A DNA stretch of 64,000 bases, taken from the NCBI GenBank assembly GCA_963662625.1, contig OY759726.1, forward strand, positions 1,696,001 through 1,760,000, in the 5' to 3' direction. The stretch is from Nitrosopumilus sp. (GTDB taxonomy: Archaea > Thermoproteota > Nitrososphaeria > Nitrososphaerales > Nitrosopumilaceae). Made by a program: the position numbers and the translations under genes. This document shows, piece after piece, positions 3,642 to 56,060 of this stretch (positions within the stretch are counted from its first letter, which is position 1; every line of letters begins with the position of its first letter). The notes under the pieces are model-generated. The model searched no databases and had not been told where the DNA came from. It saw nothing but the letters and a program-made list of their open reading frames with translations.

Positions 3642-5034
3642 ATGATAACCACCCAGGCGTAGTTGCCCCGATGGATAGACCCCTTGTATGGTGTGGGCCG
3701 GGCGCCCTTCGCCATGAATGGGGCAATCCGAGATGCTGTGTGACTGGGCCGGGCGCCCTGATGGGCGTGTGCAGCTTCCGGCCCGTCAGGCATCCGAAAG
3801 GAGGTGGTAGGAAAGGATGAGAAAACCAAGCATAGGGACGGGCATGGGGAAGAAAAAGTGCGAGCGTGTGTGGTGGACGATACAGGGAAGTTCCCCTAGA
3901 GGGGGCAGTACCCCAATACCCGGTACGGCGCGGGGAAGTTCGCAGGGGCGATGGAGCGCAGGTACCTGGGCGGCGGCCCCTGCAGGCCGCCCGCGGGACG
4001 ACTGGCAACACGCGGGACAGGACGCCTAGTGCCTCCGGGACGGCCGGGACCGGCATCAAACCGGCCAACACGCACAGGACGGCCCTGATAGCCTGGACCG
4101 CCAAGACCGGCAGGATTGACGCAGAGAATATGGCGCAGGTGCCGGGGACGGGCATGGTGCCGGAGCGCTGCGTCCCCACGGGCCACGCCAGGGGGATGCG
4201 CGCGATGGCCGGGCAGGGGGCCGGGATGGCCCGGGACAGGACGCGCGTGGCAAGCCGCGCCCGCAGCCTCCCGGGCCGCCACGACGCCAAAATTGACGCC
4301 CCCGTCATGCACTCCGAAAGGGCCCTGGGGCAGCCGGAGTCCGCGGGGCCGGGCCCCGGGCACGACGGGTCGGTCCTGGGCCGGCGCGCCCGGCAGGCGG
4401 GGCACCTGACGGTGGAGATCTCCGTGACGGGGGGCTCCCCGGGACGGGGGCCGCCCACAGCGGCGACGCGAGGCTGCCGGTCGGCATGACCGGCGTCGGC
4501 GCGTTCACCGCGGTGCTGATGGCCCCCGGGATCGGGGGACGTCCCCGGGTCCGGGGGGGGGCCAAGGCAGGAGGCATCGTGGGCCGGGACGTTCCCGGCG
4601 GCCTGCCAGTCGGGGAACCGGCTGCGCGCGGGGAGGATCAAGAAGATCGATCCCGGCAGCCTGGCCAGCCGGGCCATACGCGGGGCCGCGAACACCGCCG
4701 CGCGGCACGACGCCAGGATGGAAGCAGTGTACGCGTCCGCGCGCCGGATGCACGCGGACGAGCACGGGCCGGCCATAATCGTGGCGGCCCACAAGATGGT
4801 CGCCATGATGTGGCATGTGCCGGCCACCGGGACGCTCCATGGGTCCCGCAACGGGGGGCCGTGCCGGAGCAAGCTGGCCGGGACGGGGAAGACGCGCCGG
4901 GGGCGGCCCCCCGTGCTGCCCGCATCCCGGACCGTCTTGCCGGCGCTGGCCATGAATCCCATGCCATGCAACCCAGGCACGGATCGGAAAAGCCGCGGGA
5001 TGCATTGCGGCAGCTACGCCTGGGTGGTTAACAT
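3642..5034 (+). mobile_element. Decayed IS110-family element bounded by ~32-bp inverted repeats
   Basis: Frameshifted fragments from 3817 to ~4900: SIGTGMGKKKC (IGID-like), AKTGRIDA (KTDxxDA-like), RDRTRVASR, TGVGAFTA, WAGTFPAACQSG (catalytic Ser), AHKMVAMMWH. IRs at 3642-3673 and 5003-5034 have 4 mismatches. Confidence 0.85.
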
Positions 5035-5135
5035 AGGAGCGCCACTCTGCCTTGCGCAGGATGTGGGATCTTGGGTATCTTGCACGTAGATCTTGTTCTA
5101 CGAGTGGCAGGCTTGGACGTGCGGTACAGCCGTGT

Positions 5136-6803
5136 CTACCCCCACCCCAGGACGTCGTGGTACGGCTTTGGGACCAGATCCCTCGAGTCGTTGAGCAGCG
5201 GCTCCACGGCCGAGTCCAGCACGTACGTCACGGCCCAGTCGCGCCTGCCCCTGACGGAGCGGCCGAGCCCCTGCAGGATCTTCGTGACCACCTGCGACCG
5301 GTACCAGAGCGGGTACCTGCTCATCTTGGCCGCCACCCACCTTTCAGTCGGGTTCGGGAACGGCGCCTTGGCTATCACCTGGAACCTGGACAGGTCGTCC
5401 TTCAGGTCCACGCCCTGCCAGAGGGACGACGACACTAGGACGCCGTTGTCCGACTCTGCGTGCTCCCTGATGATGTCCCTCTGCGTCCTCCCGCCGGGGT
5501 TCGTGGCGTGGCAGATCCTGACGCGCTCCCGGTTCCCCGGGGACACGTTCTCCGAGATGTCGACGCACCTGGCAACCGACGAAGTCAGGATCAGGCCCCT
5601 CTGGTCCCCGTGCCTTGACAGTATCTGGTCGATCTTCTCCCACACGATTCCCTCCACCCCGCGGGGGCTCCGGTGGCTGAGTTTCGCGGCGTTCACAAAC
5701 TCCACCCTGCGGTTCTCGGGGGGAAACGGCGAGCGGGGGGTCTCCACCAGCGCCACCTCGTCTGGCTGGATCCCGGTGTTCTGGCAGAACGATTCCTTGT
5801 CCACCGTGGCGGACATGAAGATCTGGTACGGCGTGACGATGAAGCGCTCGACGTACCGCGAGATGTCCAGGGGCCTTATCTCGACCGACTCGAACCTCCC
5901 GCCGTCGTAGGCCGCCTCGTTGATGATGAAGTTCCCCGGGTCGGAGGACACCTCGAACCTGGCGTCGGCGAACGCCTCGTGCATCCTGTCCAGCCGGCTC
6001 ACCGCGCCGTAGTCGGGGCGCCTCCGGAACGCCTCGCTCTCCCGTACCTCCATGGCCTTGCGCGCGTATGGCCTCGCCATGTCGTCGAGCAGCGCGGCGA
6101 CGGAATCGGTGTCGGACAGGCGGCGCGGCTCTACCCTGATCCCGCACTCGCCCGCGTGCCCCCGGCACACCCTGATCCCGACGAACCGCATGATCTGGTC
6201 CTCCATCGAGTGGGATTCGTCGAACACCGAGATCACCCTGTCCCTGAGGTAGTCGCCGTACGGCCCCTGGTTGTGCTTGACTACCTGGAAGTATGAGTAA
6301 TAGTTCCACACCGAGTGGTCCGCCAGCAGCGCGGAGAACTTTTGCTCGTAGTAGGGGCAGACGATCTCGTCGAACGTCCCGTCCTTGTACTGGACTATGT
6401 GCGGCTTGAACTTGCAGTTTTTCCGCCGCCCGTCCTCGGACGCCTCCTCGCACTCGCCCTTGTCGCCGGTCAGCCCCCGGGCCATAGCCGTCCCGTACTC
6501 CTGCAGGTCGATCCCCTCCTGCTCCATCGCCTTGAAGCAGGGGAAGTTGGCCTTGCCTTTTGCCGGCACCGCCTCGAAGTCGCTGGCGTACTGATCCTGG
6601 AGGTGCCTCGACGCCGTGACGACGAAGGACCTCTGGTAGCTCCTCGCCAGGGCCATGGCGATGGCGGACTTGCCTATCCCGGTGGGAGCTGAGAGCAGGA
6701 TCCTCCTGTACCCGGACTTTAGGCGTTGCTGTATCTCGTCGAGTATCTCCCTTTGGGAGTCCCTTATCTGAAACTGCGGAGGGAAGTTGTCCGAAAGGCT
6801 CAG
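5136..6803 (-). CDS. Rad3/XPD/DinG-family ATP-dependent DNA helicase
   Basis: Q motif (RDSQREI), Walker A APTGIGKS, FeS Cys residues, DESH, SAT, QGVD, QGLGRSVR. Walker A lies upstream of the first in-frame ATG (6656), so the start is set at CTG 6803. Confidence 0.9.
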   Translation of the reverse strand: MSLSDNFPPQFQIRDSQREILDEIQQRLKSGYRRILLSAPTGIGKSAIAMALARSYQRSFVVTASRHLQDQYASDFEAVPAKGKANFPCFKAMEQEGIDLQEYGTAMARGLTGDKGECEEASEDGRRKNCKFKPHIVQYKDGTFDEIVCPYYEQKFSALLADHSVWNYYSYFQVVKHNQGPYGDYLRDRVISVFDESHSMEDQIMRFVGIRVCRGHAGECGIRVEPRRLSDTDSVAALLDDMARPYARKAMEVRESEAFRRRPDYGAVSRLDRMHEAFADARFEVSSDPGNFIINEAAYDGGRFESVEIRPLDISRYVERFIVTPYQIFMSATVDKESFCQNTGIQPDEVALVETPRSPFPPENRRVEFVNAAKLSHRSPRGVEGIVWEKIDQILSRHGDQRGLILTSSVARCVDISENVSPGNRERVRICHATNPGGRTQRDIIREHAESDNGVLVSSSLWQGVDLKDDLSRFQVIAKAPFPNPTERWVAAKMSRYPLWYRSQVVTKILQGLGRSVRGRRDWAVTYVLDSAVEPLLNDSRDLVPKPYHDVLGWG

Positions 6804-6885
6804 GGATCAGGTTTGGCCCCATGTTTAAAATACTTGCCCCCAAAACCCGCCCAACCCTTAATTCGGATGCCCCCGCACGCAGGGC

Positions 6886-7602
6886 ATGGCCGTGATATAT
6901 GGCGCCGCGGACAGCGAGGTGCGACTCCTCGGCCTGTACCCCGGGCACATCAGGGGGATTGGCGACATAGCCAGGGCCGAGGCCAGGGTGCGGGAGGGGC
7001 TTGGGGAAGGCGCGGCTGGGCTGCTGGCGAGGATCAGGCGGTGGCGGCTGAAGCGGCAGCATGTCCAGCTTGAAAGGAACAGGTCCTCCCCGTACCACGC
7101 GGGGGCCGTCGGGGAGAACAGGGCCATCGGCGTGCTGTCGCGGCTGGGCGACGGATACCACGTGTTGTGCGGCGTGAGGATCAACCTGCCGTACTTTATC
7201 TCGTACGGCGGGCGGAAGAACCTCGGGTCGGCCCAGATCGACTTCGTCGTGGTCTCTAGGAATGGGGTGTTCGTGGTGGAGGTGAAGAACTGGAGCGACG
7301 ATTACGTCCGCAGGGGGGGCTATTTCAGCCCCCACGAGCAGGCCGGGCGCGCGGGCCGGCTGCTGTGGCACGTCCTAAAGTCGTGGAGGAACGTGCCGGG
7401 TAGGGTGACCAGCGTGGTGCTGTCGATCCGGGGCAACATCAGGTACGACCCGGATCACAGGGCGGTCTTCGTAGCAGACCTTGGCAACATAAACAGGCTC
7501 CTGGAGGGCGGTAGGGACGAGATATCCGAAGTGGACGTCGGGAGGATCGTGGCGCGGCTCAGGGGGCACGTGGCGATGCCCGATCGCGTGAGCAGGGCGT
7601 AA
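6886..7602 (+). CDS. NERD (nuclease-related domain) protein
   Basis: GAVGENR, QIDFVVVSRNGVFVVEVKNW and SPHEQA motifs. Confidence 0.85.
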   Translation: MAVIYGAADSEVRLLGLYPGHIRGIGDIARAEARVREGLGEGAAGLLARIRRWRLKRQHVQLERNRSSPYHAGAVGENRAIGVLSRLGDGYHVLCGVRINLPYFISYGGRKNLGSAQIDFVVVSRNGVFVVEVKNWSDDYVRRGGYFSPHEQAGRAGRLLWHVLKSWRNVPGRVTSVVLSIRGNIRYDPDHRAVFVADLGNINRLLEGGRDEISEVDVGRIVARLRGHVAMPDRVSRA

Positions 7603-7845
7603 CGTACCGGCGACGCGCCGCTTGGGATTTTCTGCGGGGGCCGCGCGCGGATCTTCCATGATCGCGCGCGGGCCGGCCGCCCTAACCGCGGGTGGCCTTT
7701 GCCGCAGCATGCCCGGAACCGGGCTTCCCAATTCTGCGTGTCGGGGAAGGGGGACGACCTGAGGGGCCAGACGCGGGCCGCCTTGCAGCTCTGTTTCCAG
7801 CCAGCCCGGCTACAGGAAGGGGGAGGTGCTCTCGGGCCGCTCGGA

Positions 7846-8787: not shown

Positions 8788-9003
8788 GTTGCCAGCGCGG
8801 ACGGAATCTAAAGGTTGTGACGGAGTTAGCCTGCCGCACAATTGCCATAAATTGCCGGGTCTGAACAATTGAGCCACTTGGTATGTCGCACAACCCCGTC
8901 CATACCCGTCCCCGCGGGGCTGTCTTTCGTGCCTGGAAGTCAGGCCATGCGACAGGCCGCGCCGTGCCATGTTTTTACACCTAACACGAATGCCCCCAAG
9001 CGC

Positions 9004-9201
9004 GTGAGATTCCGGGTTTTCATAAGGCGGGACGAGGATGGCGTTTTCGTCTCCGAGGCTCTGGGGCTGCCAAGATGCTTAGCCTAGGGTGATGCGAGGG
9101 AAGGTGCAATAACCGACATCAAGGATGCCATTTCAGGACACATGTCCAGTCTGAAGAGGCACGGCGAACCGATCCCGCTGCGGTTGACGCAGATGCCGTA
9201 G
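9004..9201 (+). pseudogene. hicB: HicB-family antitoxin pseudogene
   Basis: VRFRVFIRRDEDGVFVSEALGLPRCLA*GDAREGAITDIKDAI...HGEPIP, with an internal TAG at 9085 where Gln (QG) is expected. Confidence 0.78.
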
Positions 9202-9207
9202 AGGCAC

Positions 9208-9400
9208 CCGTCTAAGTCCCCGGCCGCCCACGCAGGGGAACTGCCGAAGGCGCTTGGCAAGATCGGGCATCCAGTCGATCACCGGACTGGAAGCCCCATA
9301 ATCCTGAAAAACGGGAACTGCCTGCACAGAAGGATAACCACATGGCGCCGGGCACGGGCTCCGGAGATCGATCTTGCCAGACCGGGACAAATCCTGATCG
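9208..9400 (+). pseudogene. hicA: HicA-family toxin remnant
   Basis: SKSPAAHAGELPKALGKIGHPVDHRTGSPIILK resembles the HicA N-terminus; the GSH His is replaced by Pro, there is no start codon and the frame then breaks. Confidence 0.68.
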
Positions 9401-9709
9401 CGGCTTTTCGGGAGCCACATGCCGCAACGGCACGGGAAGATCCCGGGAAGGCGTACAGAGTACCCGAGGGCAGAAACCGGGATGGCCGCAGCGGACGCGC
9501 CTCGCGCAACCCGGGCGCTGGGGCCACGTACCTTCCCGCCGCCACGCCGGCGCAGGCCGGGCGCGGCGCCCCGGCGCAGGGGAATTGCGGGACGTCCGGG
9601 GAGGTGGGGCGCGCCATGTCGGGGTGCCCGGGGCAGTTCCACGCCGGGCCTTGGTGGGGCGTGTCGGCTGGAGGCCCCCGGGATCCTTTGATCGCCGCCA
9701 CGCGCGGCG

Positions 9710-10336: not shown

Positions 10337-13300
10337 CTAGCCGCCCCGCGCGCCGTAGACCCTCTCGAGCGCCGCCGCCTTCTCCTCGTCCGGTATGGAG
10401 TCGAGCGCCTTTTGCATGATCTGCTTCAGCATCGGTATGTCGTTCCTCACCCCTATCGCCAGGTCGTACGTGTACCCGGACGGGCCGGAGTTTGCCAGCC
10501 CCTCGATTCCCAGCGTGCCGATGATGTGCGACGCGTTCGGCCACGGCATGATGACCATGTCTGCGTCGCCCGCGGCCACCGCCCGCAGCGCGTCGCGTAT
10601 GTCGTCAAACGTGGCATGGCCTGCCCCGGGGTGCGTCCGCGCGATCCACGACTCCGTGGCGTCGTCAATCTCCGTGGCTATCCGGAACCCTGACAGGTCG
10701 CCGTTGTCGATGTCCCTCTCGCCCAGCGTCACCATGTCGGCCGAGATTACCGTGTGCGGGCCGGTAAAGTCCATGAAGCCGCGCCGGTCCTCCGTGTCGG
10801 CGACCGTCATCAGCACGTCCGCGTCGCCGTTCCTGACGGCGTCCAGCGCCCCCGGCCACGACGAGATGCCGCCCGCCTCCACCAGGTTGGCGCCGGTGTA
10901 CCGTTCCACCCTCGCGACGTACCATCCGGTGAGCCCGTCGAGGCTCCCCTCGTCGTTCAGGTACTCTATGGGCACCCACCCGGGGTCGTACGCCACCCGT
11001 ATGGTGCCGTTCCGGGCAAGCCACGCCTCCTCCCCGTACGTCAGGGCGGACGGGTCGTAGAGCCCCTCCAGCGCAGCCGCCTTCTCCTCGTCCGGTATGG
11101 AGTCGAGCGCCTTTTGCATGATCTGCTTCAGCACCGGGATGTCGTTCCTCACCCCTATCGCCAGGTCGTACGCGTAGCCCGACGGGCCGGAGTTTGCCAG
11201 CCCGCCTATGCCAGAGGTGTATGTTATGTATGACGCGTTTGCCCACGGCAGGATGGTCATGTCGGCGTCGCCCGCCGCCACCGCCCGCAGTGCCCCCTGG
11301 ACGTCGTCAAAGGAGTCGTACTCGGCCCCCGGGTGCGCCTGGTCGAGCCACGATTCCAGCGCGTCCCCGCCCACCGTGGCTATCCGGAACCCTGACAGGT
11401 CGCCGTTGTCGATGTCCCTCTCGCCCAGCGTCACCATGTCGGCCGTCAGCGTCGTGTGCGGCCTGGTGAAGTCCAGAAATTCGTGCCTGCCCTCCGTGTC
11501 CGCAATCATCATCAGCACGTCCGCCCCGCCGTTCCTGGCGGCGTCGAGCGCCCCTGCCCACGTGGAGAACCCTTCCGCCCCGACCAGGTCGGCGCCGGTG
11601 TACCGTTCCACCCTCGCGACGTACCATCCGGTGAGCCCGTCGAGGCTCCCCTCGTCGTTCAGGTACTCTATGGGCACCCACCCGGGGTCGTACGCCACCC
11701 GTATGGTGCCGTTCCGGGCAAGCCACGCCTCCTCCCCGTACGTCAGGGCGGACGGGTCGTAGAGCCCCTCCAGCGCAGCCGCCTTCTCCTCGTCCGGTAT
11801 GGAGTCGAGCGCCTTTTGCATGATCTGCTTCAGCACCGGGATGTCGTTCCTCACCCCTATCGCCAGGTCGTACGCGTAGCCCGACGGGCCGGAGTTTGCC
11901 AGCCCGCCTATGCCAGAGGTGTATGTTATGTATGACGCGTTTGCCCACGGCAGGATGGTCATGTCGGCGTCGCCCGCCGCCACCGCCCGCAGTGCCCCCT
12001 GGACGTCGTCAAAGGAGTCGTACTCGGCCCCCGGGTGCGCCTGGTCGAGCCACGATTCCAGCGCGTCCCCGCCCACCGTGGCTATCCGGAACCCTGACAG
12101 GTCGCCGTTGTCGATGTCCCTCTCGCCCAGCGTCACCATGTCGGCCGTCAGCGTCGTGTGCGGCCTGGTGAAGTCCAGAAATTCGTGCCTGCCCTCCGTG
12201 TCCGCAATCATCATCAGCACGTCCGCCCCGCCGTTCCTGGCGGCGTCGAGCGCCCCTGCCCACGTGGAGAACCCTTCCGCCCCGACCAGGTCGGCGCCGG
12301 TGTACTGTCCCACCCTTGCCATGTACCACGCCGTGAGGCCGTCGACGTCCCCCGCGTCGTTCAGGTACTCTATGGGCTGCCACGCGGGGTCGTACGCCAC
12401 CCGTATGGCGCCGTTGTCGTCGAGCCACGCCGCCTCCGCGTCGGTAAGGGCGGGCGCGCCGGCCGGGCCCGCGCCTGCCTGCCACGTCCCGTGGCTGTAC
12501 GATCCGCTGCCGAACACGTACCCGTCATGGAGGACGAACGTCGACTGCTTCGGCTCCACGGTGCCGGTGGCCGGGTTGGCAAACTCGTAGCCCGCGGTGG
12601 ACCTGCCCGTTTCCGCCAGGTCGTCCAGCACGTCGTCCCATTCTAGCAGCTCGGCTATCAGCGTCGCGTTCCCCACCAGGGCGGGGTTTGCGCCGTGGGC
12701 CACTATCGTCCCGTCCGTGTCCAGCACGAACGGGTATGACTCCTTCTTGCTCTCCATGGACGTGATGGCAGCAAACGCCCCGTCCGTTCCCAGCAGGTCG
12801 TACGCCGCGATGGCGTTCCTGATGGACCAGTCCGAGCCCACTGCCATGGCCCTCTGCCCCTCGAGGTAGAACCCGCTGCCGAATATGTACCCGTCGCGCT
12901 GCACCACCCACGACATCTTTGCCTGGTCCCCGCCGGTCGCCGGGTTGAGGAACACGTACGTCATCCACGCGCCGTCCCCCCTGTCCAGCGCGTCCCTCAG
13001 GCCGCCAACCGCCGCCTCCAGCTGTATGTCGGACCACGCCTTGGCCCCCCTCCGGTCCAGCGTGGAGCCGTCTGCCATCTCCACCGCGGTATCCGACGTG
13101 ATCACGAACGGGTACGCGTTCTCCTCCACGTTCATCGCGGTGATTATCTCAAACGCGCCGCTGCCGTGCGCGTCGTACAGCGCTAGCGCGTTACTGACTG
13201 CGAGCACCGCGTCCCTCATGAGCCCGTAGGTGGCCCCCCCGTCCTGGGAGCCGGCCTCCGCGGCAATCCCGGCGTCGGCGAGCCGCTGCACGGACTGCTC

Positions 13301-13498
13301 GTGCACGCATATGGCGTCCCCGTTGCCCCGCACCATCAGCTGCAGGCCCTCGCGGCACGCCACGTCCTCCGCGGCTATGCCGCCTGACATCTGTGCCCTG
13401 GGGGAGAGGACGCTCATGCCGTCGCCGTGCGCGGCGAGGATCCCGGGGGCAGCCGCCACCGCGGCCAGCAACACCACGAGCAACGGGACCGCATTCAT
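10337..13498 (-). CDS. Secreted protein: signal peptide, small two-Cys domain, 2x Cache-like, 3x SBP family 3 (BvgS-type VFT) domains
   Basis: Cache-like motifs YPFVI...NPATG...DGYIFGSG (twice); LTxxExAWL...IRVAYDPxWxPIEY...LAIGVRND...ILQKAL-like (three times). Confidence 0.88.
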   Translation of the reverse strand: MNAVPLLVVLLAAVAAAPGILAAHGDGMSVLSPRAQMSGGIAAEDVACREGLQLMVRGNGDAICVHEQSVQRLADAGIAAEAGSQDGGATYGLMRDAVLAVSNALALYDAHGSGAFEIITAMNVEENAYPFVITSDTAVEMADGSTLDRRGAKAWSDIQLEAAVGGLRDALDRGDGAWMTYVFLNPATGGDQAKMSWVVQRDGYIFGSGFYLEGQRAMAVGSDWSIRNAIAAYDLLGTDGAFAAITSMESKKESYPFVLDTDGTIVAHGANPALVGNATLIAELLEWDDVLDDLAETGRSTAGYEFANPATGTVEPKQSTFVLHDGYVFGSGSYSHGTWQAGAGPAGAPALTDAEAAWLDDNGAIRVAYDPAWQPIEYLNDAGDVDGLTAWYMARVGQYTGADLVGAEGFSTWAGALDAARNGGADVLMMIADTEGRHEFLDFTRPHTTLTADMVTLGERDIDNGDLSGFRIATVGGDALESWLDQAHPGAEYDSFDDVQGALRAVAAGDADMTILPWANASYITYTSGIGGLANSGPSGYAYDLAIGVRNDIPVLKQIMQKALDSIPDEEKAAALEGLYDPSALTYGEEAWLARNGTIRVAYDPGWVPIEYLNDEGSLDGLTGWYVARVERYTGADLVGAEGFSTWAGALDAARNGGADVLMMIADTEGRHEFLDFTRPHTTLTADMVTLGERDIDNGDLSGFRIATVGGDALESWLDQAHPGAEYDSFDDVQGALRAVAAGDADMTILPWANASYITYTSGIGGLANSGPSGYAYDLAIGVRNDIPVLKQIMQKALDSIPDEEKAAALEGLYDPSALTYGEEAWLARNGTIRVAYDPGWVPIEYLNDEGSLDGLTGWYVARVERYTGANLVEAGGISSWPGALDAVRNGDADVLMTVADTEDRRGFMDFTGPHTVISADMVTLGERDIDNGDLSGFRIATEIDDATESWIARTHPGAGHATFDDIRDALRAVAAGDADMVIMPWPNASHIIGTLGIEGLANSGPSGYTYDLAIGVRNDIPMLKQIMQKALDSIPDEEKAAALERVYGARGG
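10889..12305. repeat. Near-perfect tandem duplication, period 702 bp (one SBP domain)
   Basis: Off-frame ORFs recur identically at +702 (11194..11469 = 11896..12171); sequence diverges outside these bounds. Confidence 0.92.
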
Positions 13499-33517: not shown

Positions 33518-33717
33518 TCCTTCTTCATCTCGTTGAGCCTGGTCATCATCCTTGCGATGTCGCGCCTTATCGCCTTTATCTTCCCGCTCTCCTTCTTCAG
33601 CGTTCCCTGGGAGCCGTCCACCCTGAGCTTTGCGAGTTCAGTCCTGGTTTCCTGGATCCTTTCCCTGAGGTCCTTCTCGTTGAATGCCCTGATCGTCTTC
33701 ATGCTGATCCGGGTCAT
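33514..33717 (-). CDS. rpl29: 50S ribosomal protein L29
   Basis: [10 protein letters not shown]; position in cluster. Confidence 0.93.
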
Positions 33718-34753: not shown

Positions 34754-34754
34754 G

Positions 34755-35213
34755 CTATACCTCCCGGGCCACCAGTTCCAGGTGCGTCCGCACGTTGTTC
34801 TTGGGCGACGACCTTCCCATCGCCCTCGGGATGAACCTCTTCACCAGGACTCCCTTGTGCACCGTCGCGTTCACTATCCTCAGCCTGTCGAGGTCCATGC
34901 CCTTGTACTCCGCGTTCGATTCCAGGTTGTCCAGGGCCTTGATGAACTCGGCCGCGGTCTTCTGCGGGTACCTCCCGGCCATCATGCCGGGATCCGACTT
35001 GTGGCCCACCTGCTTCTTGTACCTGCCAAACGCGATGGCCCTCTCCCCGTTGATCACGGCCTGGAGGTAGTCCCTGGCCTTCTCTATCGAGAGCCCCTTT
35101 ATCGCGACCGCCACCTCCCGCGCGTGCTTGTGCGACATGTCGATCTCCCTTATCGAGGCGCGGGCGTGCCTCGTCGGGTCGTAGTCCTGATAAGCGTAGC
35201 CGAACCTCCCCAT
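34755..35213 (-). CDS. rpl22: 50S ribosomal protein L22
   Basis: GRYPQK, PRAMGR. Confidence 0.96.
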
Positions 35214-41724: not shown

Positions 41725-41803
41725 GCCGGCCCCTGGCGCCCCCGTGCCCCGGATCGCGGCCCCGCGCACAAGGTCTATTAGTTCAGGCGGGATGCCGGGT
41801 TAC

Positions 41804-44800
41804 ATGGAACCGGATCCTGCCCAAAGGCGGGCGATCGACCACGAGGGCTCGCCGCTCCTGGTGGTGGCGGGCCCCGGAAGCGGCAAGACCAGGGTGATCG
41901 TCGAGAGGGCGGCATCCATGATAGGCGGCGGGGCAAAGCCGTCCGAGATCCTGTGCCTGACGTTCTCCGACAGGGCCGCAAGGGAGATGGCCGAACGCCT
42001 GAGGGACAAGGGGATCGAGGCATCCGAGATGGACATATGCACCTTCCACGCATTCTGCAGGCAGGTGCTGGAGGACAACGTGCTGGAATCCGGGATCGAC
42101 GCGTCGTCGGGGATCGTGGGCAGGGCCGAGCAGGTCGTCTGGGGGATCAACAACATCGACGGCTGCGGGCTGGAGCACGTGAAGATCGGCCAAGACCCGG
42201 CCCGCGCGGTCGAGTCGATAATGGAGGGCATCGGCGGGTTCAAAAAGGAGCTGATCGGCCCGGACAGGCTTGAAGCGTACCTGGGGGAGGACGAGTGCAG
42301 GGACGCGCCCGGGGACGAAAGGGACGGCCTGGACGCCCTGGCGGACCTCTGCAGGGTTTACCGCAGGTACCAGCAGTACCAGCGGAAGCACTCCCTGATT
42401 GACTTTGACGACATGGTGGCAGAGTCGATCCGCCTGCTGGCATCAAACGGCGCGCTGCGGAAGCGGTACCAGGGCAGGTACAGGCACGTCTTCGTCGACG
42501 AGTTCCAGGACAACAACTACTCCCAGATAATGCTGGTCAAGGCGATAGCCAGGGACGGGAACGTCACGGCCGTGGGGGACGACGACCAGGGCATCTACCA
42601 TTTCCAGGGGGCGCGCCACACCAACTTCCGGGACTTTGAGGATCATTTCAAAGGCACCACCACGGTAAAACTCGAGCGGAACTACAGGAGCACCAAAAAC
42701 ATCGTAAGGCTCGCAAACTCGTGCATCGGGAAGCAGGAGGGCAGGCCGGAGAAGAGACTCTACTCGGAGAACGAGGACGGCGAGAAGGCCATGGTGGCAA
42801 AGTGCGCCGACGAGCATGCCGAGGCGGAGTTCGTCGCTGGCACGATCAGGGAGATGGCGGGGGAGCCGGCAGGCGGGAAGGGCGGCGGCAGGCCGCTTGC
42901 CTGGGGCGACTTTGCCGTGCTGACGCGGCGCAGGGAAGACGGGAAAAAGTTCGCCGACGCCCTCGCCGGCGCCGGGATCCCGGCGGAGTTCACCGGCGAG
43001 CCGGGCGCCCCCCAGTCCCCGATCATGCGAGACCTGCTGGCCAACCTGAGGATAGCGCAGTCCCCGTCCACCGCGGGGGCGGAGATCGTCAGGCTGCTCA
43101 AAAACCAGGGGGTGCCGGACGCCGACATCGCCAGGATATGCCACGCCGCCAGGGGAAGGGCCCGCCGCGAGCAGTCCGGCGTCGACTTTGTGCTCGAAAC
43201 GCTGCGGGGGGCGCCGGGGCTGGGAGTCGCCCACGGGGAGGACGTGGCGGAGGTAGCGCGCCACGTCGGGAGGCTCGAGGGCGCCGCAAACGCGCACGGC
43301 CTGGGCGAGTTCGTCCACGAGGTGGTCATGTCGATCTCCGGGCTGGCCCGGAGGGCGGCCGCCGACGATTCCAGAAGTGGCAGGCGGCAACTGGGCACCC
43401 TCAGGGCCGCATGCGACGCGGCGATGGAGTACGAGAGGGTAAGCCCAGGCGCGACGCCCGGGGACTTTGCCAGGTACCTGGAGGCGCGGCGGTTTGAGGC
43501 GGACGCCGCGCCGGAGGGGGGCGCGGCGGGGGCCGTGCTGGTGACGACCATCCACCAGAGCAAGGGAAAGGAGTTCCCGGTAGTGTTCGTGGCCGACGTC
43601 GCCGCGAACAGGCTCCCGCTGAGGCACAGGGAGAAGAAATTCCGCGTCCCGGACGGCCTGTCCCGTCTCGCGCGGGAAGACGCGGACCCGAGGGAGATCC
43701 ACGTACGTGAGGAGCGGAGGCTGCTGTACGTCGCCATGACCAGGGCGCGGGACCGGCTGTTCATCACGTACTGCGCGAGGTACGGGCAGGGCGCCAGGGA
43801 GGCGGCGCCGTCGAGGTTCCTGCAGGAGCTTGGGTTCGAGGACAACCCGCTGATCAGCTGCACGTCCTTTGGCGGGACCGGCCCGGCGGCCGTGCCGAGG
43901 AAGCCGGGCGCCGTCGAGGCGGTCAAGCTGGAAAGGCAGGAGCAGGCCAGGCAGGCGGTGGACAGGATGCAGCTGCGGTCGGCCGTGAGGAAGATACGGG
44001 ATCTGGCGGAGATCCTCCACTACGAGGAGCGCGGGAGCCTCGACGGCTTTGACCCGCGGGAGATCCTCGCGGCCGGGGCCGGCGAGCCCGGCATCGGGCA
44101 CCTCCTGAGGGGTGAGAGGGAGCCCCTGATCGACCGGGAGTCGCTCACGCTCAGCAAGTCCAGCCTCGAGTCGTACGAGAGGTGCCCGCTGCAGTTCAAG
44201 TTCAGGTACGCCCTGCGGGTCCCCGTGCTCCCGGGCCCCGCCGCGGCCGCCGGCACGGCGGTGCACAGGGTGATCGAGGCCGTGACGAGGTACCGGATGG
44301 CCGGGAGGGACGTGACGGATGACGAGGCGCTGGCCATGCTGGAGAAGAAGTGGGGCGGCCTGGCGTCCGGCACCCGGGCCGTGCCAAGGCAGAAGAGGAA
44401 GGATGCTGGATCGTGGCTGCGGACGTTCCTTGCCTGGGACGGGGCCAACCGGAACGTCCCCGTAGCCGCAGAGAAGGAGTTCAGGCTGGAGATTGCCGGC
44501 GTGGCGGTAAAGGGGTACATAGACAGGGTGGAGCGGACGCCCGACGGCGGGTACGTCGTGATCGACTACAAGACGGGCCACGACGGGGTCACCGGCAGGA
44601 CCATCAAGGACGACATCCAGATGAACGTCTACGCGATGGCCGCCGAGAGGCTGTACGGGAGGCTGCCGGAGAAGGCCGTCCTGTTCTACCTGGCAAAGGA
44701 CAAGCGCGTCGAGTACGAGGTTTCTCCCGCCGGCGTGAGGGAGGCCAGGGAATCGATCGAGGCCATGGTGGGATCCATCCTGGGCGAGAGGTTCCCCGCC

Positions 44801-44869
44801 GAGCCCTCGTACAAAAACTGCAAGTATTGCGACTTTACGGGCATCTGCGACGCGAGCAAGGCGGCCTGA
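41804..44869 (+). CDS. UvrD/AdnAB-like SF1 helicase fused to a PD-(D/E)XK nuclease with FeS Cys
   Basis: AGPGSGKT, DEFQD, NYRS, TIHQSKGKE, YVAMTRA; CP...GYIDRVE...IDYKTG...CKYCDFTGIC. Confidence 0.92.
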   Translation: MEPDPAQRRAIDHEGSPLLVVAGPGSGKTRVIVERAASMIGGGAKPSEILCLTFSDRAAREMAERLRDKGIEASEMDICTFHAFCRQVLEDNVLESGIDASSGIVGRAEQVVWGINNIDGCGLEHVKIGQDPARAVESIMEGIGGFKKELIGPDRLEAYLGEDECRDAPGDERDGLDALADLCRVYRRYQQYQRKHSLIDFDDMVAESIRLLASNGALRKRYQGRYRHVFVDEFQDNNYSQIMLVKAIARDGNVTAVGDDDQGIYHFQGARHTNFRDFEDHFKGTTTVKLERNYRSTKNIVRLANSCIGKQEGRPEKRLYSENEDGEKAMVAKCADEHAEAEFVAGTIREMAGEPAGGKGGGRPLAWGDFAVLTRRREDGKKFADALAGAGIPAEFTGEPGAPQSPIMRDLLANLRIAQSPSTAGAEIVRLLKNQGVPDADIARICHAARGRARREQSGVDFVLETLRGAPGLGVAHGEDVAEVARHVGRLEGAANAHGLGEFVHEVVMSISGLARRAAADDSRSGRRQLGTLRAACDAAMEYERVSPGATPGDFARYLEARRFEADAAPEGGAAGAVLVTTIHQSKGKEFPVVFVADVAANRLPLRHREKKFRVPDGLSRLAREDADPREIHVREERRLLYVAMTRARDRLFITYCARYGQGAREAAPSRFLQELGFEDNPLISCTSFGGTGPAAVPRKPGAVEAVKLERQEQARQAVDRMQLRSAVRKIRDLAEILHYEERGSLDGFDPREILAAGAGEPGIGHLLRGEREPLIDRESLTLSKSSLESYERCPLQFKFRYALRVPVLPGPAAAAGTAVHRVIEAVTRYRMAGRDVTDDEALAMLEKKWGGLASGTRAVPRQKRKDAGSWLRTFLAWDGANRNVPVAAEKEFRLEIAGVAVKGYIDRVERTPDGGYVVIDYKTGHDGVTGRTIKDDIQMNVYAMAAERLYGRLPEKAVLFYLAKDKRVEYEVSPAGVREARESIEAMVGSILGERFPAEPSYKNCKYCDFTGICDASKAA

Positions 44870-44914
44870 CTGCGGCCGCCATGTGGGGCCGTGGCGCGCC
44901 CGCCGGGCCCGCAG

Positions 44915-45832
44915 TCAGGAACCGCCGCCCGGCGCGGCCGCGGCCTGGAAATGCCCCAGGGCGTCCCCGACGTCGGCCACCTCCAGCACCTCCATTCCGT
45001 ACGCCTCCTCGGTCATGGGGGATAGGGGCTTCTGCTCCAGGGCGCACGACCTGTAGACGAAGTTCCCCGCCCTGCTCTCCTCGCACGACTCCACCTGGGC
45101 CACGTTCTGGCCCGAGGGCACGAGGAACACGCTGGCGCCGTGCGCCCCCGCGGCCCTCGCCTTGTCGGATATCCCGCCGACCGCCCCTATCCTCGCGTCG
45201 GGCAGGATCGAGCCGGTGATCACCATGTCGCCGCTGATCCCCCTGCCCTGGAGCTCCGATATCAGCAGCACCGCCATCGCGGCGCCCGCGCTGCGCCCGT
45301 CGACGGTCTGCAGCCGCGTCTTGTCGGCGTCGACGGTGATCGAGAACACGACGTCCCGGCCCGACAGGTCCTCGCCGAGGTAGTCCTGGGCCACCTTGGC
45401 TGCCACCCTCGCGGACTCCTGAAAGTCGATGCCCGTGGGGACCTCGGTGTTGACCAGGACGAGGCCCTCGCCGGGATCCCTGACGGATACCAGGATCTTC
45501 ATGACCGTGCCCTCGTACTGCGTCCTCTCGAAAAACCCGTCACGCACGACCAGCGGCCTTACCCCCACCGAGTTTATCGACTGGCCCCCGTCGGGCGGCC
45601 CCCCGTACCCGGCGCCGGGCCCCGCCCCGGGTTCCCCGCCACCCGGGCCGCCGGCCTGCCCCCGCGGCCCGTCCGCGGCGCCGGCGAGCTCGCCGGCAAG
45701 CCTCTCGTTGTCCCTCGCGGCCCGGTCAAGCGCCGCGACCAGGTACCCGTTCTGCTGGTACAGCAGGAAGTTCACGATCAGAGACGCGCCCAGAACCGCC
45801 ACGAGGGCCAGGGCCAACAGTGCCGCCTTCAT
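44915..45832 (-). CDS. Membrane-anchored S16 (Lon-type) protease domain protein
   Basis: DGRSAG (Ser), ITGSI, VGGISDK (Lys); no ATPase domain. Confidence 0.88.
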   Translation of the reverse strand: MKAALLALALVAVLGASLIVNFLLYQQNGYLVAALDRAARDNERLAGELAGAADGPRGQAGGPGGGEPGAGPGAGYGGPPDGGQSINSVGVRPLVVRDGFFERTQYEGTVMKILVSVRDPGEGLVLVNTEVPTGIDFQESARVAAKVAQDYLGEDLSGRDVVFSITVDADKTRLQTVDGRSAGAAMAVLLISELQGRGISGDMVITGSILPDARIGAVGGISDKARAAGAHGASVFLVPSGQNVAQVESCEESRAGNFVYRSCALEQKPLSPMTEEAYGMEVLEVADVGDALGHFQAAAAPGGGS

Positions 45833-45989
45833 CTTTGCCTAGACCCCACGCGCCCGCTTTTTAATATAACCGTTAAACGCCAGTTAAGCGAATAGGCCAG
45901 ATGGCCAACCCCCGCGATTCCAAACGGATCGGCGGGGGACGGGCCACGACAAGATTTGAATTGCCCAGAAACAAAACCCGCCGGGGCCG

Positions 45990-46736
45990 TCACTTGCGGA
46001 GGGCGCGGACGTAGTAGACGGAGTGGCCGGACTCCGTTTTCTCCTCCCGCACCTCGAAATAGTCCTCTGCCGTCATCAGCAGCTGGACGAGGTTCTTGCT
46101 GCGGTACATGCGCACGTCAAACGACGGGCTTATCTTCCTTATGTTGTGGCCCACCACCCCGAGGTGCACCCACCTGTCCGTCCCCGACTCCGTCGCGTCC
46201 ACCGCGTCGATCGCCTTTAGCACGACCTTCCTCCACTTTGGAAGCTTGGCCTTGGGGCCGGGGGTTTTTTTCGGGGGGCCGGACAGTATGTCCACGAACG
46301 TGAACACCTCGCACGCGTGCTGCAGCGTCTGGGGCGTGCTGGTCCTGCCGATCCCCATCACGAACAGCCCGGCCTCCCTGACGCGCTTGGCCAGGCCGGT
46401 AAAGTCGCTGTCCGACGACACTATGCAGAACCCGTCCACCGTGCCGGAGTGCAGGATGTCCATCGCCTCTATGATCAGGAATATGTCGATCGAGTTCTTG
46501 CGGGTGGCGTGCTTCAGCTGGTGGCGCGTGTCAAAGGCGTACTTGTTTGCCCTGTCGCGCCACCCGGCCATGCCGGGGCTCGCCCAGTCGCCGTAGATGC
46601 GCCGTATGGTCACCACCCCGTACTTGGACGCCTCCCGCAGCATGCTCCCAAGCAGCTTGGGCTGGGCGTTCTCGCCGTCTATCAGCATGGCCAGCCTGCG
46701 GTCGTGTTCCATCTCTGCAGCCATCTGGTATGGCAT
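45990..46736 (-). CDS. NYN-domain protein with OST-HTH/LOTUS C-terminus
   Basis: IDGEN, KNSID, SSDSDF, FDVRMY. Confidence 0.9.
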   Translation of the reverse strand: MPYQMAAEMEHDRRLAMLIDGENAQPKLLGSMLREASKYGVVTIRRIYGDWASPGMAGWRDRANKYAFDTRHQLKHATRKNSIDIFLIIEAMDILHSGTVDGFCIVSSDSDFTGLAKRVREAGLFVMGIGRTSTPQTLQHACEVFTFVDILSGPPKKTPGPKAKLPKWRKVVLKAIDAVDATESGTDRWVHLGVVGHNIRKISPSFDVRMYRSKNLVQLLMTAEDYFEVREEKTESGHSVYYVRALRK

Positions 46737-52332: not shown

Positions 52333-52397
52333 GACCCCAGTCGGCCGCGCCCGCTAATTAAGACTATTGGAAAGGTTAACCCGCGCGAGCCGGCCGG

Positions 52398-53693: not shown

Positions 53694-53807
53694 CTGGTTC
53701 CGTACGCCGGCTGATCTTAATAACCAACCGGTGGCCCGGGCGGCGCCCGGGGGCCGCCCGGCGGGCCGGGGGCGCGGGCGGGACACGCGGTTCCGGACTT
53801 ATATAAC

Positions 53808-54134
53808 ATGGGGCCGGAGTCATGCCTGATGGGCAAGTCCGGAAAGGCTGCAGAGTCCGACGACCTGGAATGGGCGTCATACATGCCGGTCAAGTACAGG
53901 ATCCTCATACGCTTCAAGTACCGGGACATCCTGCTGACCGCCGAGCGCGTCGAAAGGGAGATGCCCCCGGAATTCGGGATCCCTATAGCGGAGCTGCTGC
54001 GGAAGAAGGCCGAGACGATAAAGGCGCTGGCCACCAACGGCTTTACCGACTGGAGCGACTGGGATCGCCTCGCCCTGGACATAAAGCCCCCGGGAAGGTG
54101 GCGCAGCCTGCGGCAGAGGCTGCTGGGGTACTAG
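53808..54134 (+). CDS. Hypothetical protein
   Basis: 108-aa ORF with host-like codon usage; TTATATAA at ~53799, so the true start may be 53829. Confidence 0.65.
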   Translation: MGPESCLMGKSGKAAESDDLEWASYMPVKYRILIRFKYRDILLTAERVEREMPPEFGIPIAELLRKKAETIKALATNGFTDWSDWDRLALDIKPPGRWRSLRQRLLGY

Positions 54135-54259
54135 CCCGGCGTGGTTCTGCCACGCGGGTGCGTGGTACTAGAGTGGCGCTCACAGATAATTTCCCCCTGA
54201 GAGGGGGCACTGCAGAAAAGCCTGCTGATCGCCGGATCGCCTAACCGCCCACGGGCGAG

Positions 54260-54480
54260 ACCGGCAGGAAACTGCGGTACCTGACGTGGGCCATGCGCGC
54301 AGGGAGGGACACCAGGATCCGCAACAGGATGATGGCAGTGCGCGGGGTGCTAGGCGGATACCCCGCGGGGGACGCCGCGTGCCTTACAGACGTGGAACGG
54401 CGCACCGTCCGCCCGTGGGCTGGACGGAGCCGGGCGCGGCGCCCTCCGACCCCCCCCCCCGGCAGCGCGGCCCATGGCCC
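54260..54480 (+). pseudogene. IS630-like transposase N-terminal HTH remnant
   Basis: RDTRIRNRMMAVRGVLGGYPAGDAACLTDVERRTVRPW resembles the IS630 HTH; truncated. Confidence 0.55.
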
Positions 54481-54925
54481 GGCCGAGGAAGAAGGCCGGC
54501 AGGGCGGGCGTGACAATACCGGCGGACCTGCCCCGGGGCGGGTACGCCGCGGCGTGCCACGTCCCGGACGGGGGGACCGCGCAGGAGGGGACGCGCTTCA
54601 GGGACCCGGCGCGCGTGATACTCACGCAAGGGCGGGCCAGGATCCCCGGGGCGCCGTTCTCGCGGGCGTACGTGCGGGAGCTGCGTGGGTTGGGGGACCG
54701 GGTGCCCGGCAGGCACGCGGGCGGGTACAGTGGGGCCGTCACGTCCTACAGGCCCTCCGCGTACGGGAGATCCGGCCCCGGGGGCGCCACCGGCCGTGCC
54801 GGGCCCGCGGGCCGCGGGAGCTACGGCGCGCAGTGGAGAGGAAGGGGCTGCGGCGCGCGCCGTGGAGCCGGTAGCAGTCCCGGGCAGGCACTCGGCGCAT
54901 GTGCGCCGCGCTTCCTGGCCGTGGA

Positions 54926-56060
54926 TGCGTAGTGATCACATTAGATAATCGCTCATCTTGGCGGCCTTGATCTCCCCCGTGCATGGCATCGTCCCTACTG
55001 GTTCCTTCATCTCGTCGGCCGACCCGCACGGCCCGTTGGCGGCGTGCAGCCCCGTGTTGCGCCACTGTCCCCCTGCCGGGCTGGGGTCTGGCGCGTGGGC
55101 GGGAAAGTGCCCGGGCACGACGTCCCCGCCGTGGCCCCTGACGGCTCCCGTCACCTTGCGCGACTTGTGGCAGCCCGCGTTGTCCGCAAGGACGGGCACC
55201 TTCCCGAACTTCCTGCGGAGCCTGCCGGGAAAGTCCGAGAAGATGTCCCCGTTTGCCCTGTAGCAGGACGAGAGGCGGAACCCGTCCCGGCGCGGCGCGC
55301 CAAGCGGGCAGGACCCCTGCCCCGGCAGCGCGGGCGGGGCCGTGGCCCCGGCGCCCCGGGGCGCCCGCGCCCTCTTCTGCACCAGCCCGGTCACGTGGGA
55401 CGCCCCGTCCTGGGCGACGACGGCGTACCCCCCGGGGAGCAGTGCGAGACGACGCGCCTTGCTTTTTTTCAAGCTCCCTCCGCCCTGGTCCCGGGGCCGG
55501 CTTGGGGTGCCTGGGCCGGGGGGCCTGCCCCGGGGAGCCGATCCTGCGCGGCGCCTCGCGTGTCCACGGCGTCCCGTGCCGCGCCCCGAACCTCCTCTCC
55601 ATGCGGGCCGCCAGGAGGCGGGCGGCCCGCGGGCCAGACCCGAACCCGAACCCCTGCGGGCCCGCGAGGAGGTCTTTCCCGGGCTGCCCCGGCTGCGGCC
55701 CGCCCGGCTTCGGTGGGGCGCCGGGCCTCCTCTCGCCGTGCCTGCCGCGGGTCCCCGTCTGCATGGCGCGCACGGGCCACCCGCGCACCGTGTAGGGCCG
55801 GTCCGGCGCCCCGCCTGCCGGGCGCATGGGCGCGCCCCCCTTGCGCATGACGTGCGCGGGCAGCCGCGCGCGTGCCTTTGGATCCTTTTCCGTCCTGTGG
55901 ATCTTCCCGGGGTACCCAGCCCCGGTCTTGGGAAGGAACACCCTACCTGTTGGCATGATGATGTCTTTCATGTGTAGCGTCAGGCTTGCCGCGATCCGGG
56001 CCTTTCGGCCTGGTATCGTTGGCTGTTTTGTGGGCGATTATTAGTTGGGATTACTACGCA
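54926..56060 (-). mobile_element. Decayed IS630-family element (~1.1 kb) with terminal inverted repeats
   Basis: EKDPKARARL...TVRGW (HTH), AQDG (DE), ADNAGCHKS, PAHAPDPSPAG (PxYSPxLNPIE-like); A7 run at ~55463; IRs at 54926-54952 and 56034-56060 match 21/27. Confidence 0.82.

Follow-up and report, generated by a model that had tools for sequence, protein, structure and literature searches.

Why should dead mobile elements in an archaeal chromosome be richer in guanine and cytosine (GC) than the genes around them, when mutation is widely taken to be AT-biased? The question is raised by a 64-kb piece of thaumarchaeal chromosome from Nitrosopumilus sp. (contig OY759726.1, positions 1,696,001 to 1,760,000), here called the window, which has a GC content of 65.8% and carries remnants of two insertion sequences (IS), one of the IS110 and one of the IS630 family. 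A first-pass annotation had proposed that independent dead elements in this DNA decay toward G/C, mostly by A>G and T>C changes, through either a lineage-wide inverted mutation spectrum or a targeted process resembling fungal repeat-induced point mutation (RIP). Judged from the sequences, the core of that observation is real: dead copies of both families carry an A:T>G:C hypermutation. In the IS110 copies it consists of transitions, affects both strands equally, falls mainly on paired, oriented 5'-TNNA-3' sites and is decoupled from ordinary decay, and it is absent from the IS110 copies of related genomes.

In 29 host genes (13,919 codons), GC at the first, second and third codon positions (GC1, GC2 and GC3) is 0.622, 0.471 and 0.893; it is 0.900 at four-fold degenerate sites (n = 7,659) and 0.664 in the pooled genes. 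Both remnants exceed the genes in GC at codon positions 1 and 2. The accompanying claim that intergenic DNA is even more GC-rich than the genes finds no confirmation, as the 25 unannotated segments of at least 60 nucleotides range from 0.52 to 0.84, most of them from 0.57 to 0.73.

Dead insertion sequences and their intact relative

The IS110 remnant was traced by tblastn and by a frameshift-aware codon alignment over the whole stretch, in which its breaks appear as anomalies of the alignment path.

3817 to 5020, plus strand: dead IS110-family element
3862 to 4546, plus strand: breaks in the IS110 remnant

Positions 3817-4903 correspond to residues 1-363 of an intact transposase, P0009, and positions 4904-5020 to the former 3' non-coding end, a part that is read through in a mutated sister copy, P0008. 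Identity by tblastn is 65% to P0008 and 52% to P0009. Both of these proteins carry the PF01548 and PF02371 domains; the window frames score 20 bits with Transposase_20 (PF02371; cut-off 21.3) and give no match to PF01548, the N-terminal DEDD domain. The remnant has lost single nucleotides in two-nucleotide codons at 3862, 3987 and 4436 as well as the codon for residue 97, and it has gained one nucleotide at 4534 and one codon at 4544-4546. Among the catalytic and conserved motifs, IGIDIG reads IGTGMG, CETTGN reads RGTTGN and YQSG reads CQSG, and the strings from which decay had originally been read (IGTG, AKTGRIDAE, AACQSGN and RGAAN) are all present in the codon alignment of 3817-5020. By its sequence this is a dead copy that has lost both frame and catalytic residues, and not an active element. 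Its GC content is 0.730, with true-frame GC1, GC2 and GC3 of 0.649, 0.638 and 0.914.

The sole stop in the remnant is a TAG at 3897-3899. Premature stops are therefore rare, as had been remarked, for a trivial reason: A>G and T>C changes never create TAA, TAG or TGA, so that dead frames stay long and open. The codon after the last transposase residue (4901-4906) is CGG in the window copy and R in P0008, which reads on for 39 more residues because the former stop codon was itself converted.

The contig to which the window belongs (1,858,698 bp) encodes the intact P0009 together with the mutated copies P0008 and P0136. Of 2,955 candidate proteins, a search with the C-terminal frame of the remnant retrieved 2, and a search with P0009 gave 230 matches at E<=1e-20, of which the best 120 were examined. 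P0009 (363 amino acids) scores 242.9 bits with the NCBIfam model transpos_IS110 (cut-off 140) and 98 and 78 bits with its two Pfam domains. P0008 (402 amino acids) is collinear with it, with zero indels over 363 residues and the stop read through, and P0136 (298 amino acids) is a third mutated copy; Pfam scores drop step by step in the order P0009, P0008, P0136 and window copy. Of 135 changed columns, 121 have the P0009 residue in one or more of five intact relatives, and 4 have the derived residue without it. Sequence comparison thus indicates that P0009 can safely be used as the ancestral state. The relatives of the element found by a scan of contigs with P0009 (18 loci) all come from Nitrosopumilaceae or Thaumarchaeota records.

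Paired transitions and ordinary decay

Because the ancestor is known as protein only, the six-class table of substitutions relative to P0009 rests on codon positions 1 and 2, with ancestral bases derived from amino acids by minimal paths and real codons used for the window copy. P0008 differs from P0009 at 74 residues, and 67.2 of the underlying changes (91%) are A:T>G:C. The corresponding share is 82% for P0136, with 71 residue differences, and 71% for the window copy, with 131 residue differences and 103.7 of about 147 inferred nucleotide changes in this class. In four intact relatives used as controls (P0098, P0099, P0100 and P0102), which differ from P0009 at 103-125 residues, it is 14-23%. 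What remains in P0008 are R>G and I>M codon paths of ambiguous class, with no G:C>A:T change. At sites where the residue fixes the base, 64 transitions and 0 other changes were counted among 342 A/T sites, and 0 of 360 G/C sites had changed. Coding-strand counts for P0008 are nearly equal for A>G (34.2) and T>C (33.0), so that the process is strand-symmetric.

The distribution of changes along the copies was also considered. Apparent cold stretches in P0008 were not significant, the longest unmutated run being 21 sites against 22.1 expected. P0136 is a mosaic, hypermutated over its first ~230 residues and identical to the intact copy over its last ~60 except for one ME>TG pair; its longest unmutated run is 59 sites against 19.5 expected. 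This mosaic suggests recombination or gene conversion between copies, or regional hypermutation.

The mutated sites of P0008 alternate between T and A, forming 50 type-runs as compared with 33.3 +/- 3.9 under an opportunity-preserving null. Close T..A pairs (<=5 nucleotides) number 23 against 3.4 expected, 16 of them at spacing 3, and the other close pairs stay below expectation (A..T 3 vs 4.3, A..A 1 vs 3.4, T..T 1 vs 3.5). When the strands are collapsed, adenines with T at -3 were mutated in 35 of 70 cases and other adenines in 29 of 261 (odds ratio 8, p = 1.6e-11), and the same effect of T at -3 is seen in P0136 and in the window copy. The dominant change is thus a concerted pair, 5'-TNNA-3' to CNNG. 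The numbers of motifs with both, one or none of the two sites changed, for TNNA and for the reverse orientation ANNT, are as follows.

P0008: TNNA 16/3/16 (35 motifs); ANNT 3/10/26
P0136: TNNA 15/3/13; ANNT 2/11/18
Window copy: TNNA 19/5/11; ANNT 3/17/18, plus 1 other

Random placement of the P0008 changes gives a mean of 8.6 (standard deviation 1.5) doubly hit TNNA motifs and a maximum of 15 in 200,000 permutations, against the 16 observed; the doubly hit fraction differs between TNNA and ANNT with p = 3.4e-4. No clear requirement for the inner NN bases was evident, and inner A/T bases are mostly spared (TAcA to CAcG, TcTA to CcTG). The window copy, though old, retains 11 intact TNNA motifs, and this favors an action confined to the elements or, failing that, one in episodes. 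Two simpler descriptions of the pattern were rejected: one and the same octamer context was changed at residues 357-358 but left intact at 302-303, which speaks against a simple local motif, and TCGA-type palindromes alone are insufficient to produce the pairing.

The three mutated copies separate this signature from a second regime. Across 296 shared columns, the derived states in P0008, P0136 and the window copy, in that order, follow patterns 111 (38 columns), 011 (19), 101 (15), 110 (3), 100 (6), 010 (11) and 001 (43). Changes common to two copies are essentially pure: A:T>G:C accounts for 52.8 of 58 shared by P0008 and the window copy, the remainder being ambiguous R>G and I>M codon paths, for 11 of 11 shared by P0136 and the window copy, and for 4 of 4 shared by P0008 and P0136. 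The changes private to P0008 are of the same kind (11.2 of 13). Those private to the window copy and to P0136 are broad, with 39.8 of 78 and 11 of 22 by residue-based inference, and the pure and broad branches differ with p = 4e-10 (Fisher).

Read directly from DNA, the private branch of the window copy comprises 65 changes (A>G 20, T>C 12, G>A 9, C>T 6, G>T 5, C>A 5, others 8). Of these, 49% are A:T>G:C; G:C>A:T transitions number 15 and G:C>T:A-type transversions 10, and only 2 of the 32 A:T>G:C transitions lie in a T..A pair. Changes from A/T to G/C amount to 36 per 265 A/T sites (0.136) and the reverse to 25 per 429 G/C sites (0.058), corresponding to an equilibrium GC of ~0.70. The private changes of the window copy are therefore ordinary decay toward roughly the GC of the genome, insufficient alone for the 0.90 seen at four-fold sites. 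Since P0008 shows 64 A:T>G:C transitions and no other change at the sites counted, while the window copy has 65 ordinary private changes with 2 of 32 paired, the hits are decoupled from ordinary decay. The first-pass annotation had suggested tabulating the six classes against intact copies with strand and context, and had regarded a balanced or AT-biased spectrum as grounds for abandoning its claim. Against the intact IS110 ancestor, the common branches are almost purely A:T>G:C, equal on both strands and tied to TNNA; P0008, at 64 to 0, is not balanced, and the private branch of the window copy, at 49%, is ordinary.

A second family shows a similar pattern.

54883 to 55968, minus strand: dead IS630/Tc1-mariner-type element, with a helix-turn-helix part at ~55968-55453 and a DDE part at ~55562-54942, in different frames

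The remnant matches the DDE_3 model at E=0.018 (15.3 bits, below the cut-off of 28.6). An exhaustive phmmer search against representatives gave 85 matches to IS630-type proteins at E<=1e-3, the best at 3e-20, with no intact-looking relative above ~36% identity, and tblastn with the intact P0016 and P0024 gave a collinear match in two frames. A further protein search for a closer intact relative, made with P0011 among longer sequences, scored none of 285 candidates. The GC content is 0.737, the conserved acidic pair DE reads DG, and the remnant contains the strings VVAQDGASHV, DNAGCHKS and PAHAPDPSPAGGQW, which had been quoted as signs of its decay. A codon of the window aligns to each of 96 columns conserved in 14 intact relatives, and at 28 of the 96 it differs from all relatives. 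In the profile-to-DNA alignment, A:T>G:C makes up 25.7 of 30 inferred changes and G:C>A:T none; together with the 71% for the window IS110 copy, this bears out the original claim of A:T>G:C dominance.

Both sites were hit in 4 of 8 TNNA motifs of the IS630 remnant against 0 of 10 ANNT motifs (p = 0.023). An IS630 pair from another contig, P0060 to P0023, with T>C 16, A>G 20, G>A 2 and C>T 0 among 52 changes, gives 4 of 19 against 0 of 22 (p = 0.038), and in a pool of 13 decayed fragments rich in Gly, Ala, Arg and Pro the counts are 13 of 38 and 2 of 30 (p = 0.008). Among 19 intact-like controls, 0 of 58 TNNA and 0 of 52 ANNT motifs are hit at both sites. Short IS630 transposase wrecks derived from ENA records (P0010, P0013, P0014, P0017, P0019, P0021, P0023, P0026, P0066, P0070 and others) lie on other, short contigs and are likewise Gly/Ala/Arg/Pro-rich, with the same residue changes, for example DNAPCHK and PPHAPEPSPAG. 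As many such wrecks occur elsewhere with the same changes, the phenomenon is not confined to the contig of the window, and wrecks of this kind come to be annotated as genes.

Controls at the DNA level came from IS110 copies of GC-rich relatives, of which L005 and L006 are intact and L010 and L012, both from one related GC-rich Nitrosopumilus metagenome-assembled genome (CBDBLO010000002.1), carry 1 and 4 stops. Singleton changes in L005, L006, L010 and L012 number 45, 58, 46 and 49, with A:T>G:C at 14, 22, 18 and 11 and C:G>T:A at 23, 21, 16 and 29, and no spacing-3 T..A pair occurs among their 65 A:T>G:C singletons. Six partial IS110 copies of a genome with 40-45% GC show, when pooled, 32 A:T>G:C against 27 C:G>T:A changes. 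The balanced spectra of these controls indicate that the signature stems neither from the method nor from IS110 decay in general, and since the spectra of L010 and L012 are ordinary or AT-leaning, the paired GC-ward signature is not general in GC-rich relatives. No decayed IS copies were found in the flanks of the related IS110 loci.

Candidate explanations

The best reading of these data, held with slightly more confidence than doubt, is that a hypermutation of IS copies from A:T to G:C, arising in episodes, on both strands alike and at paired TNNA sites, is superimposed on ordinary decay. The first component would act in bursts, converting A:T to G:C by transitions alone on both strands equally, mostly as a concerted double hit on the two adenines of the 5'-TNNA-3'/3'-ANNT-5' dyad that yields CNNG and mostly spares the inner A/T bases; it would ruin catalytic residues of the IS110 and IS630 transposases without making stops. 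The second would be slow decay in all six substitution classes, with indels and a mild pull toward ~70% GC, continuing after the first has ended. In B-DNA, nucleotides staggered by 3 bp toward their own 3' ends oppose each other across the minor groove, a stagger of the TNNA dyad that would suit a two-site agent. The most likely mechanism would be a dimeric activity with two sites, which acts on double-stranded DNA and turns the two adenines, lying on opposite strands at a distance of 3 bp, into a base read as G; for this, deamination of adenine to hypoxanthine would be the simplest chemistry. It might act in episodes on element copies, around copying, around entry or while the copies are still alike, and would in effect be a prokaryotic, adenine-directed counterpart of fungal RIP. 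From the pattern we infer this chemistry, an enzyme, and mobile or repeated DNA as the target. That the archaeon and, judging by the database fragments, its relatives use a natural, RIP-like converter of TNNA adenines in double-stranded DNA to kill IS copies is a tentative proposal, and we lean against it.

Several points weigh against the hypermutation of IS copies as the preferred account. The hits may stem from a past genome-wide episode rather than from an aim at mobile DNA specifically, and no deaminase-like or methyltransferase-like candidate gene lies within the 64-kb window. Outside the remnants, host DNA has 1029 TSSA and 1014 ASST sites, and host genes have 42 T3..A3 and 36 A3..T3 pairs (14 and 8 at four-fold sites), with no depletion of the T..A orientation in either test; both are weak tests, since most A/T sites of the host are under selection. 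The excess of C3..G3 (889) over G3..C3 (738) at four-fold sites is ambiguous and can be read as a genome-wide trace, and the ratio of CNNG to GNNC, 1.18 in the IS110 remnant and 1.09 in host genes, does not discriminate. The bases of P0009, P0008 and P0136 are inferred from protein and cover codon positions 1 and 2 only. As P0008 and P0136 came to light through their annotation as open frames, the sampling is biased against copies in which G:C>A:T changes had made stops. The IS630 replication is thin, with few motifs and the same columns recurring, so that it lends support without being independent. History is common to the three IS110 copies, 38 of 296 columns being derived in all of them, and the converted motifs of P0008 (16) and the window copy (19) overlap in 14, which is above chance (p = 3.6e-4) and could reflect common descent or hot motifs. 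By parsimony the independent paired events number about 20 rather than 50, and recurrent hits at hot motifs could mimic common ancestry, weakening the argument for episodes.

Among the alternatives, the one that survives best, unlikely as it is, is a past genome-wide episode (a transient mutator, a genotoxin or a change in repair) that hit all DNA and was purged from genes and kept in dead IS, with nothing targeted. Third positions are as GC-saturated in the host genes (GC3 0.893) as in the IS copy (0.914), the four-fold excess of C3..G3 would be its trace, and sponge-associated Thaumarchaeota as a group have raised GC, according to the available part of one report (PMC7848895). Moreover, four-fold sites stand at 90% GC against the ~70% predicted from the private branch of the pseudogene, with unannotated DNA mostly at 57-73%; a force other than present neutral decay keeps synonymous sites GC-saturated, and this GC-raising force acted genome-wide. 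The lack of T3..A3 depletion in host genes and the equality of TSSA and ASST outside the remnants argue the other way, and a single episode does not fit the spread of paired hits over several branches, namely the stem, the private branch of P0008 and the one common to P0136 and the window copy. An island beside the IS630 remnant is also untouched, although its age may be younger, which would be another reason for its condition; it lies just outside the range covered by the first-pass annotation (3817..56060) and forms a counter-example to the proposed decay.

56200 to 57240, plus strand: low-GC (0.43) island, not GC-shifted, adjoining the IS630 remnant between bioA and bioD

Ectopic gene conversion among IS copies, in which G.T and A.C mismatches would be repaired to G:C so that only A:T>G:C alleles spread, is highly unlikely. 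It would account for the purity of the common changes beside the broad private changes of the window copy and P0136, and for the mosaic structure of P0136 with its unmutated tail. The column patterns 011, 101 and 110 (19, 15 and 3 columns) clash with one tree, and recombination among the IS110 copies is probable. However, conversion provides no reason for spacing-3 T..A pairs rather than A..T, A..A or T..T pairs, and the changes private to P0008 are also pure. Conversion spreads alleles and does not create them, and the private spectrum, with 2 of 32 transitions paired, supplies too few. GC-biased gene conversion favors transversions too and has no motif, whereas A:T>C:G makes up at most 1.3 of the 58 common changes here and the pairs are oriented as TNNA.

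Less likely again is a steady lineage-wide A:T>G:C bias, for example from loss of NucS mismatch repair or of endonuclease V or Q, under which the remnants would ameliorate to a neutral equilibrium. It agrees with the elevated GC of all remnants at codon positions 1 and 2 and with the mildly GC-leaning private decay of the window copy (0.136 against 0.058 per site). As a steady process, however, the lineage-wide inverted spectrum first proposed finds no support in that same branch, which is 49% A:T>G:C and unpaired; an equilibrium of 0.90 needs ~52 changes toward G/C and 9 away from it, as compared with the 36 and 25 observed. The 64 changes of P0008, without any other change at 702 sites, are out of step with ordinary changes, a single-site preference gives no orientation-specific concerted pairs, and in related GC-rich genomes the IS110 copies decay with balanced or AT-leaning spectra.

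Base-calling errors linked to methylation would be expected to show up as changes to a palindrome-like motif on both strands. Such an artefact, or repeat mis-assembly, or a bias in passing from residues to nucleotides, can be set aside as the least likely explanation of all: the ancestral bases are indeed inferred and not read, but a motif-tied error would also strike P0009, which keeps its TNNA motifs, and host genes, in which TSSA equals ASST; the states of the window copy are read straight from DNA; the same inference on intact relatives and control pairs gives broad spectra and no pairs; the DNA-level controls lack the spacing-3 T..A pair; and decayed IS630 fragments with the same changes lie on other, short contigs.

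Several known systems resemble the proposed hypermutation in part. Fungal RIP causes C:G>T:A changes with a CpA preference and lowers GC; it is premeiotic and needs cytosine-methyltransferase-like proteins (RID/DIM-2-like). The IS copies resemble RIP products in their dense, transition-only, inactivating hypermutation of both strands, separate from ordinary decay, and differ in that A:T>G:C changes at TNNA dyads raise GC in an archaeal host, with an enzyme that is only postulated and a link to repeats that is presumed. Of the RIP-like or adenine-deaminating process on mobile DNA that was originally envisaged, the adenine-directed signature (transition-only, strand-equal and TNNA-concerted) has held up; deamination and a targeting of mobile DNA are conjectures. 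Neither ordinary decay nor a known prokaryotic process accounts for the pattern. Prokaryotes are, to our knowledge, not generally credited with RIP-like hypermutation of mobile DNA, and among the titles and abstracts searched for RIP-like or adenine-directed hypermutation of prokaryotic IS the pattern is undescribed.

Loss of MutS/L or NucS acts genome-wide and continuously, with transitions dominant, A:T>G:C raised and many G:C>A:T changes, and is not known to produce paired hits in one orientation. The IS copies share the dominance of transitions and the raised A:T>G:C. Unlike mismatch-repair loss, P0008 has 0 G:C>A:T among 64 changes, pairs dominate, and the paired component is absent from the long private branch of the window copy. 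Amelioration is matched by the slow, broad private decay of that copy, whose equilibrium GC of ~0.70 is near the 0.66 of the window, but not by the pure, paired, burst-like component that provides most of the GC gain. Diversity-generating retroelements work through reverse transcription and replace A by any base, on a single strand only and within the short variable repeat of their target gene; they share adenine-specific mutagenesis with the process considered here, which changes A to G only, on both strands, over whole IS copies. Finally, the deaminase toxin DddA acts in double-stranded DNA on cytosine in 5'-TC, causing C>T changes, as far as the consulted part of the source describes it (PMC10442228). 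Deamination of a base in duplex DNA from the minor groove, with a short context, would likewise give strand-symmetric transitions. The target here would be adenine, however, and concerted two-site action at a 3-bp spacing is no described property of DddA. No natural adenine-specific deaminase of double-stranded DNA was found among the titles and abstracts searched.

Surroundings and biological meaning

The window holds an archaeal ribosomal-protein operon (S4e, an L24-type protein and others) and genes for a proteasome alpha subunit, a Snf7-like protein, HMG-CoA synthase and biotin synthesis. Rfam and tRNA scans of the window found two tRNAs only, with no match at the remnants. The highest GC among the unannotated segments (0.837) belongs to a 129-nucleotide stretch at 3084-3212. 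Ribosomal protein S3 (33717-34840, minus strand) is broken across two frames: the NCBIfam S3 model (229 positions) is matched over its positions 3-161 by 34259-34840, and the end of the C-terminal domain lies in the other frame at 33717-34322. For an essential gene, this means either a frameshift or an error of assembly. Two further stretches were delimited.

8977 to 9309, plus strand: possible hicB-hicA remnant, weak, with stops at 9085-9087 and 9199-9201
53787 to 54882, no strand assigned: unassigned stretch between bioA and the IS630 remnant, GC 0.71, no Pfam match in the listed frames

The stretch at 53787-54882 may be older junk of the same insertion zone as the IS630 remnant. The possible hicBA remnant matches only the window's own HicB and HicA pieces, by tblastn (E 1.3e-5 and 5.4e-5), and its sequence points weakly to such an origin. 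The first-pass annotation had counted it among the examples of GC-ward decay; the changed motifs SPAA, GH and GSP are found at ~9217-9300, but the identification as hicA is weak: the hicA piece matches nothing in Pfam at E<=1 or in the PDB at E<=10, the hicB pieces have no relevant Pfam match, and the GC content, 0.597, is below the window mean. For want of PDB or Pfam support it was excluded from the spectrum. The low-GC island contains an apparently intact hicB (56233-56514; Pfam HicB_lk_antitox, 28 bits) and a hicA (56520-56746) broken at a seven-A run (56618-56624), where HicA_toxin is matched in two frames at 26.4 and 20 bits; the break is possibly a sequencing slip. An open reading frame of 138 amino acids in the same island (56822-57238) has no Pfam, NCBIfam or PADLOC match.

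Around the IS110 remnant, positions 1-7602 carry defence-like genes: an AAA_14/DUF4143 ATPase (PADLOC candidate PDC-S01), a DinG-like helicase (typeIV_DinG model, 143 bits) and a NERD nuclease-related protein. At 41744-46736, a 1041-residue UvrD/PcrA-type helicase fused to a C-terminal PD-(D/E)XK Cas4-like nuclease matches GajB-like and AddA-like models; after it, on the opposite strand, come genes for a Lon_C-domain protein and a NYN/OST-HTH protein. Two proteins of surface or sensor type and of very large size are encoded on the minus strand at 10337-13498 and 15626-24694, one of 1053 residues with three SBP_bac_3 stretches and Cache domains, the other of 3022 residues with FG-GAP repeats, an ANF-receptor, SBP_bac_5 and SdrD_B domains. 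Sponge-associated Thaumarchaeota are enriched in transposases and in toxin-antitoxin and restriction-modification genes, as stated in the part of the genome survey that was available (PMC7848895).

The finding matters for annotation, as long, stop-free, Gly/Ala/Arg/Pro-rich "proteins" such as P0008 can be hypermutated wrecks. Two unrelated IS families are inactivated by a process whose A:T>G:C changes are clean, strand-symmetric and paired at a motif, with the ancestor in the same genome. If it is enzymatic, the agent would act on duplex adenines at a fixed 3-bp stagger and be relevant to DNA repair and base editing. If it is targeted, it would be a new archaeal way of disarming transposons, and a RIP-like killing of IS copies, if true, would be the first prokaryotic hypermutation system directed at repeats or mobile DNA and would indicate a natural adenine editor of duplex DNA.

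The host lineage gives the question a wider frame. GC is 47-67% in 7 of 11 genomes of sponge-associated Thaumarchaeota and 32.5-34.2% in most free-living ones, and the same report, in its available part, leaves the GC rise in symbiotic Thaumarchaeota without explanation (PMC7848895). The titles and abstract openings searched on mutational bias in sponge Nitrosopumilus likewise offer no mutational account of it. If the process proved to be genome-wide, it would supply a concrete, testable mechanism for the rise of one thaumarchaeal lineage from ~33% to ~66% GC, and a RIP-like TNNA converter, if it exists, may have been a motor of that rise in the symbiotic members of the group.

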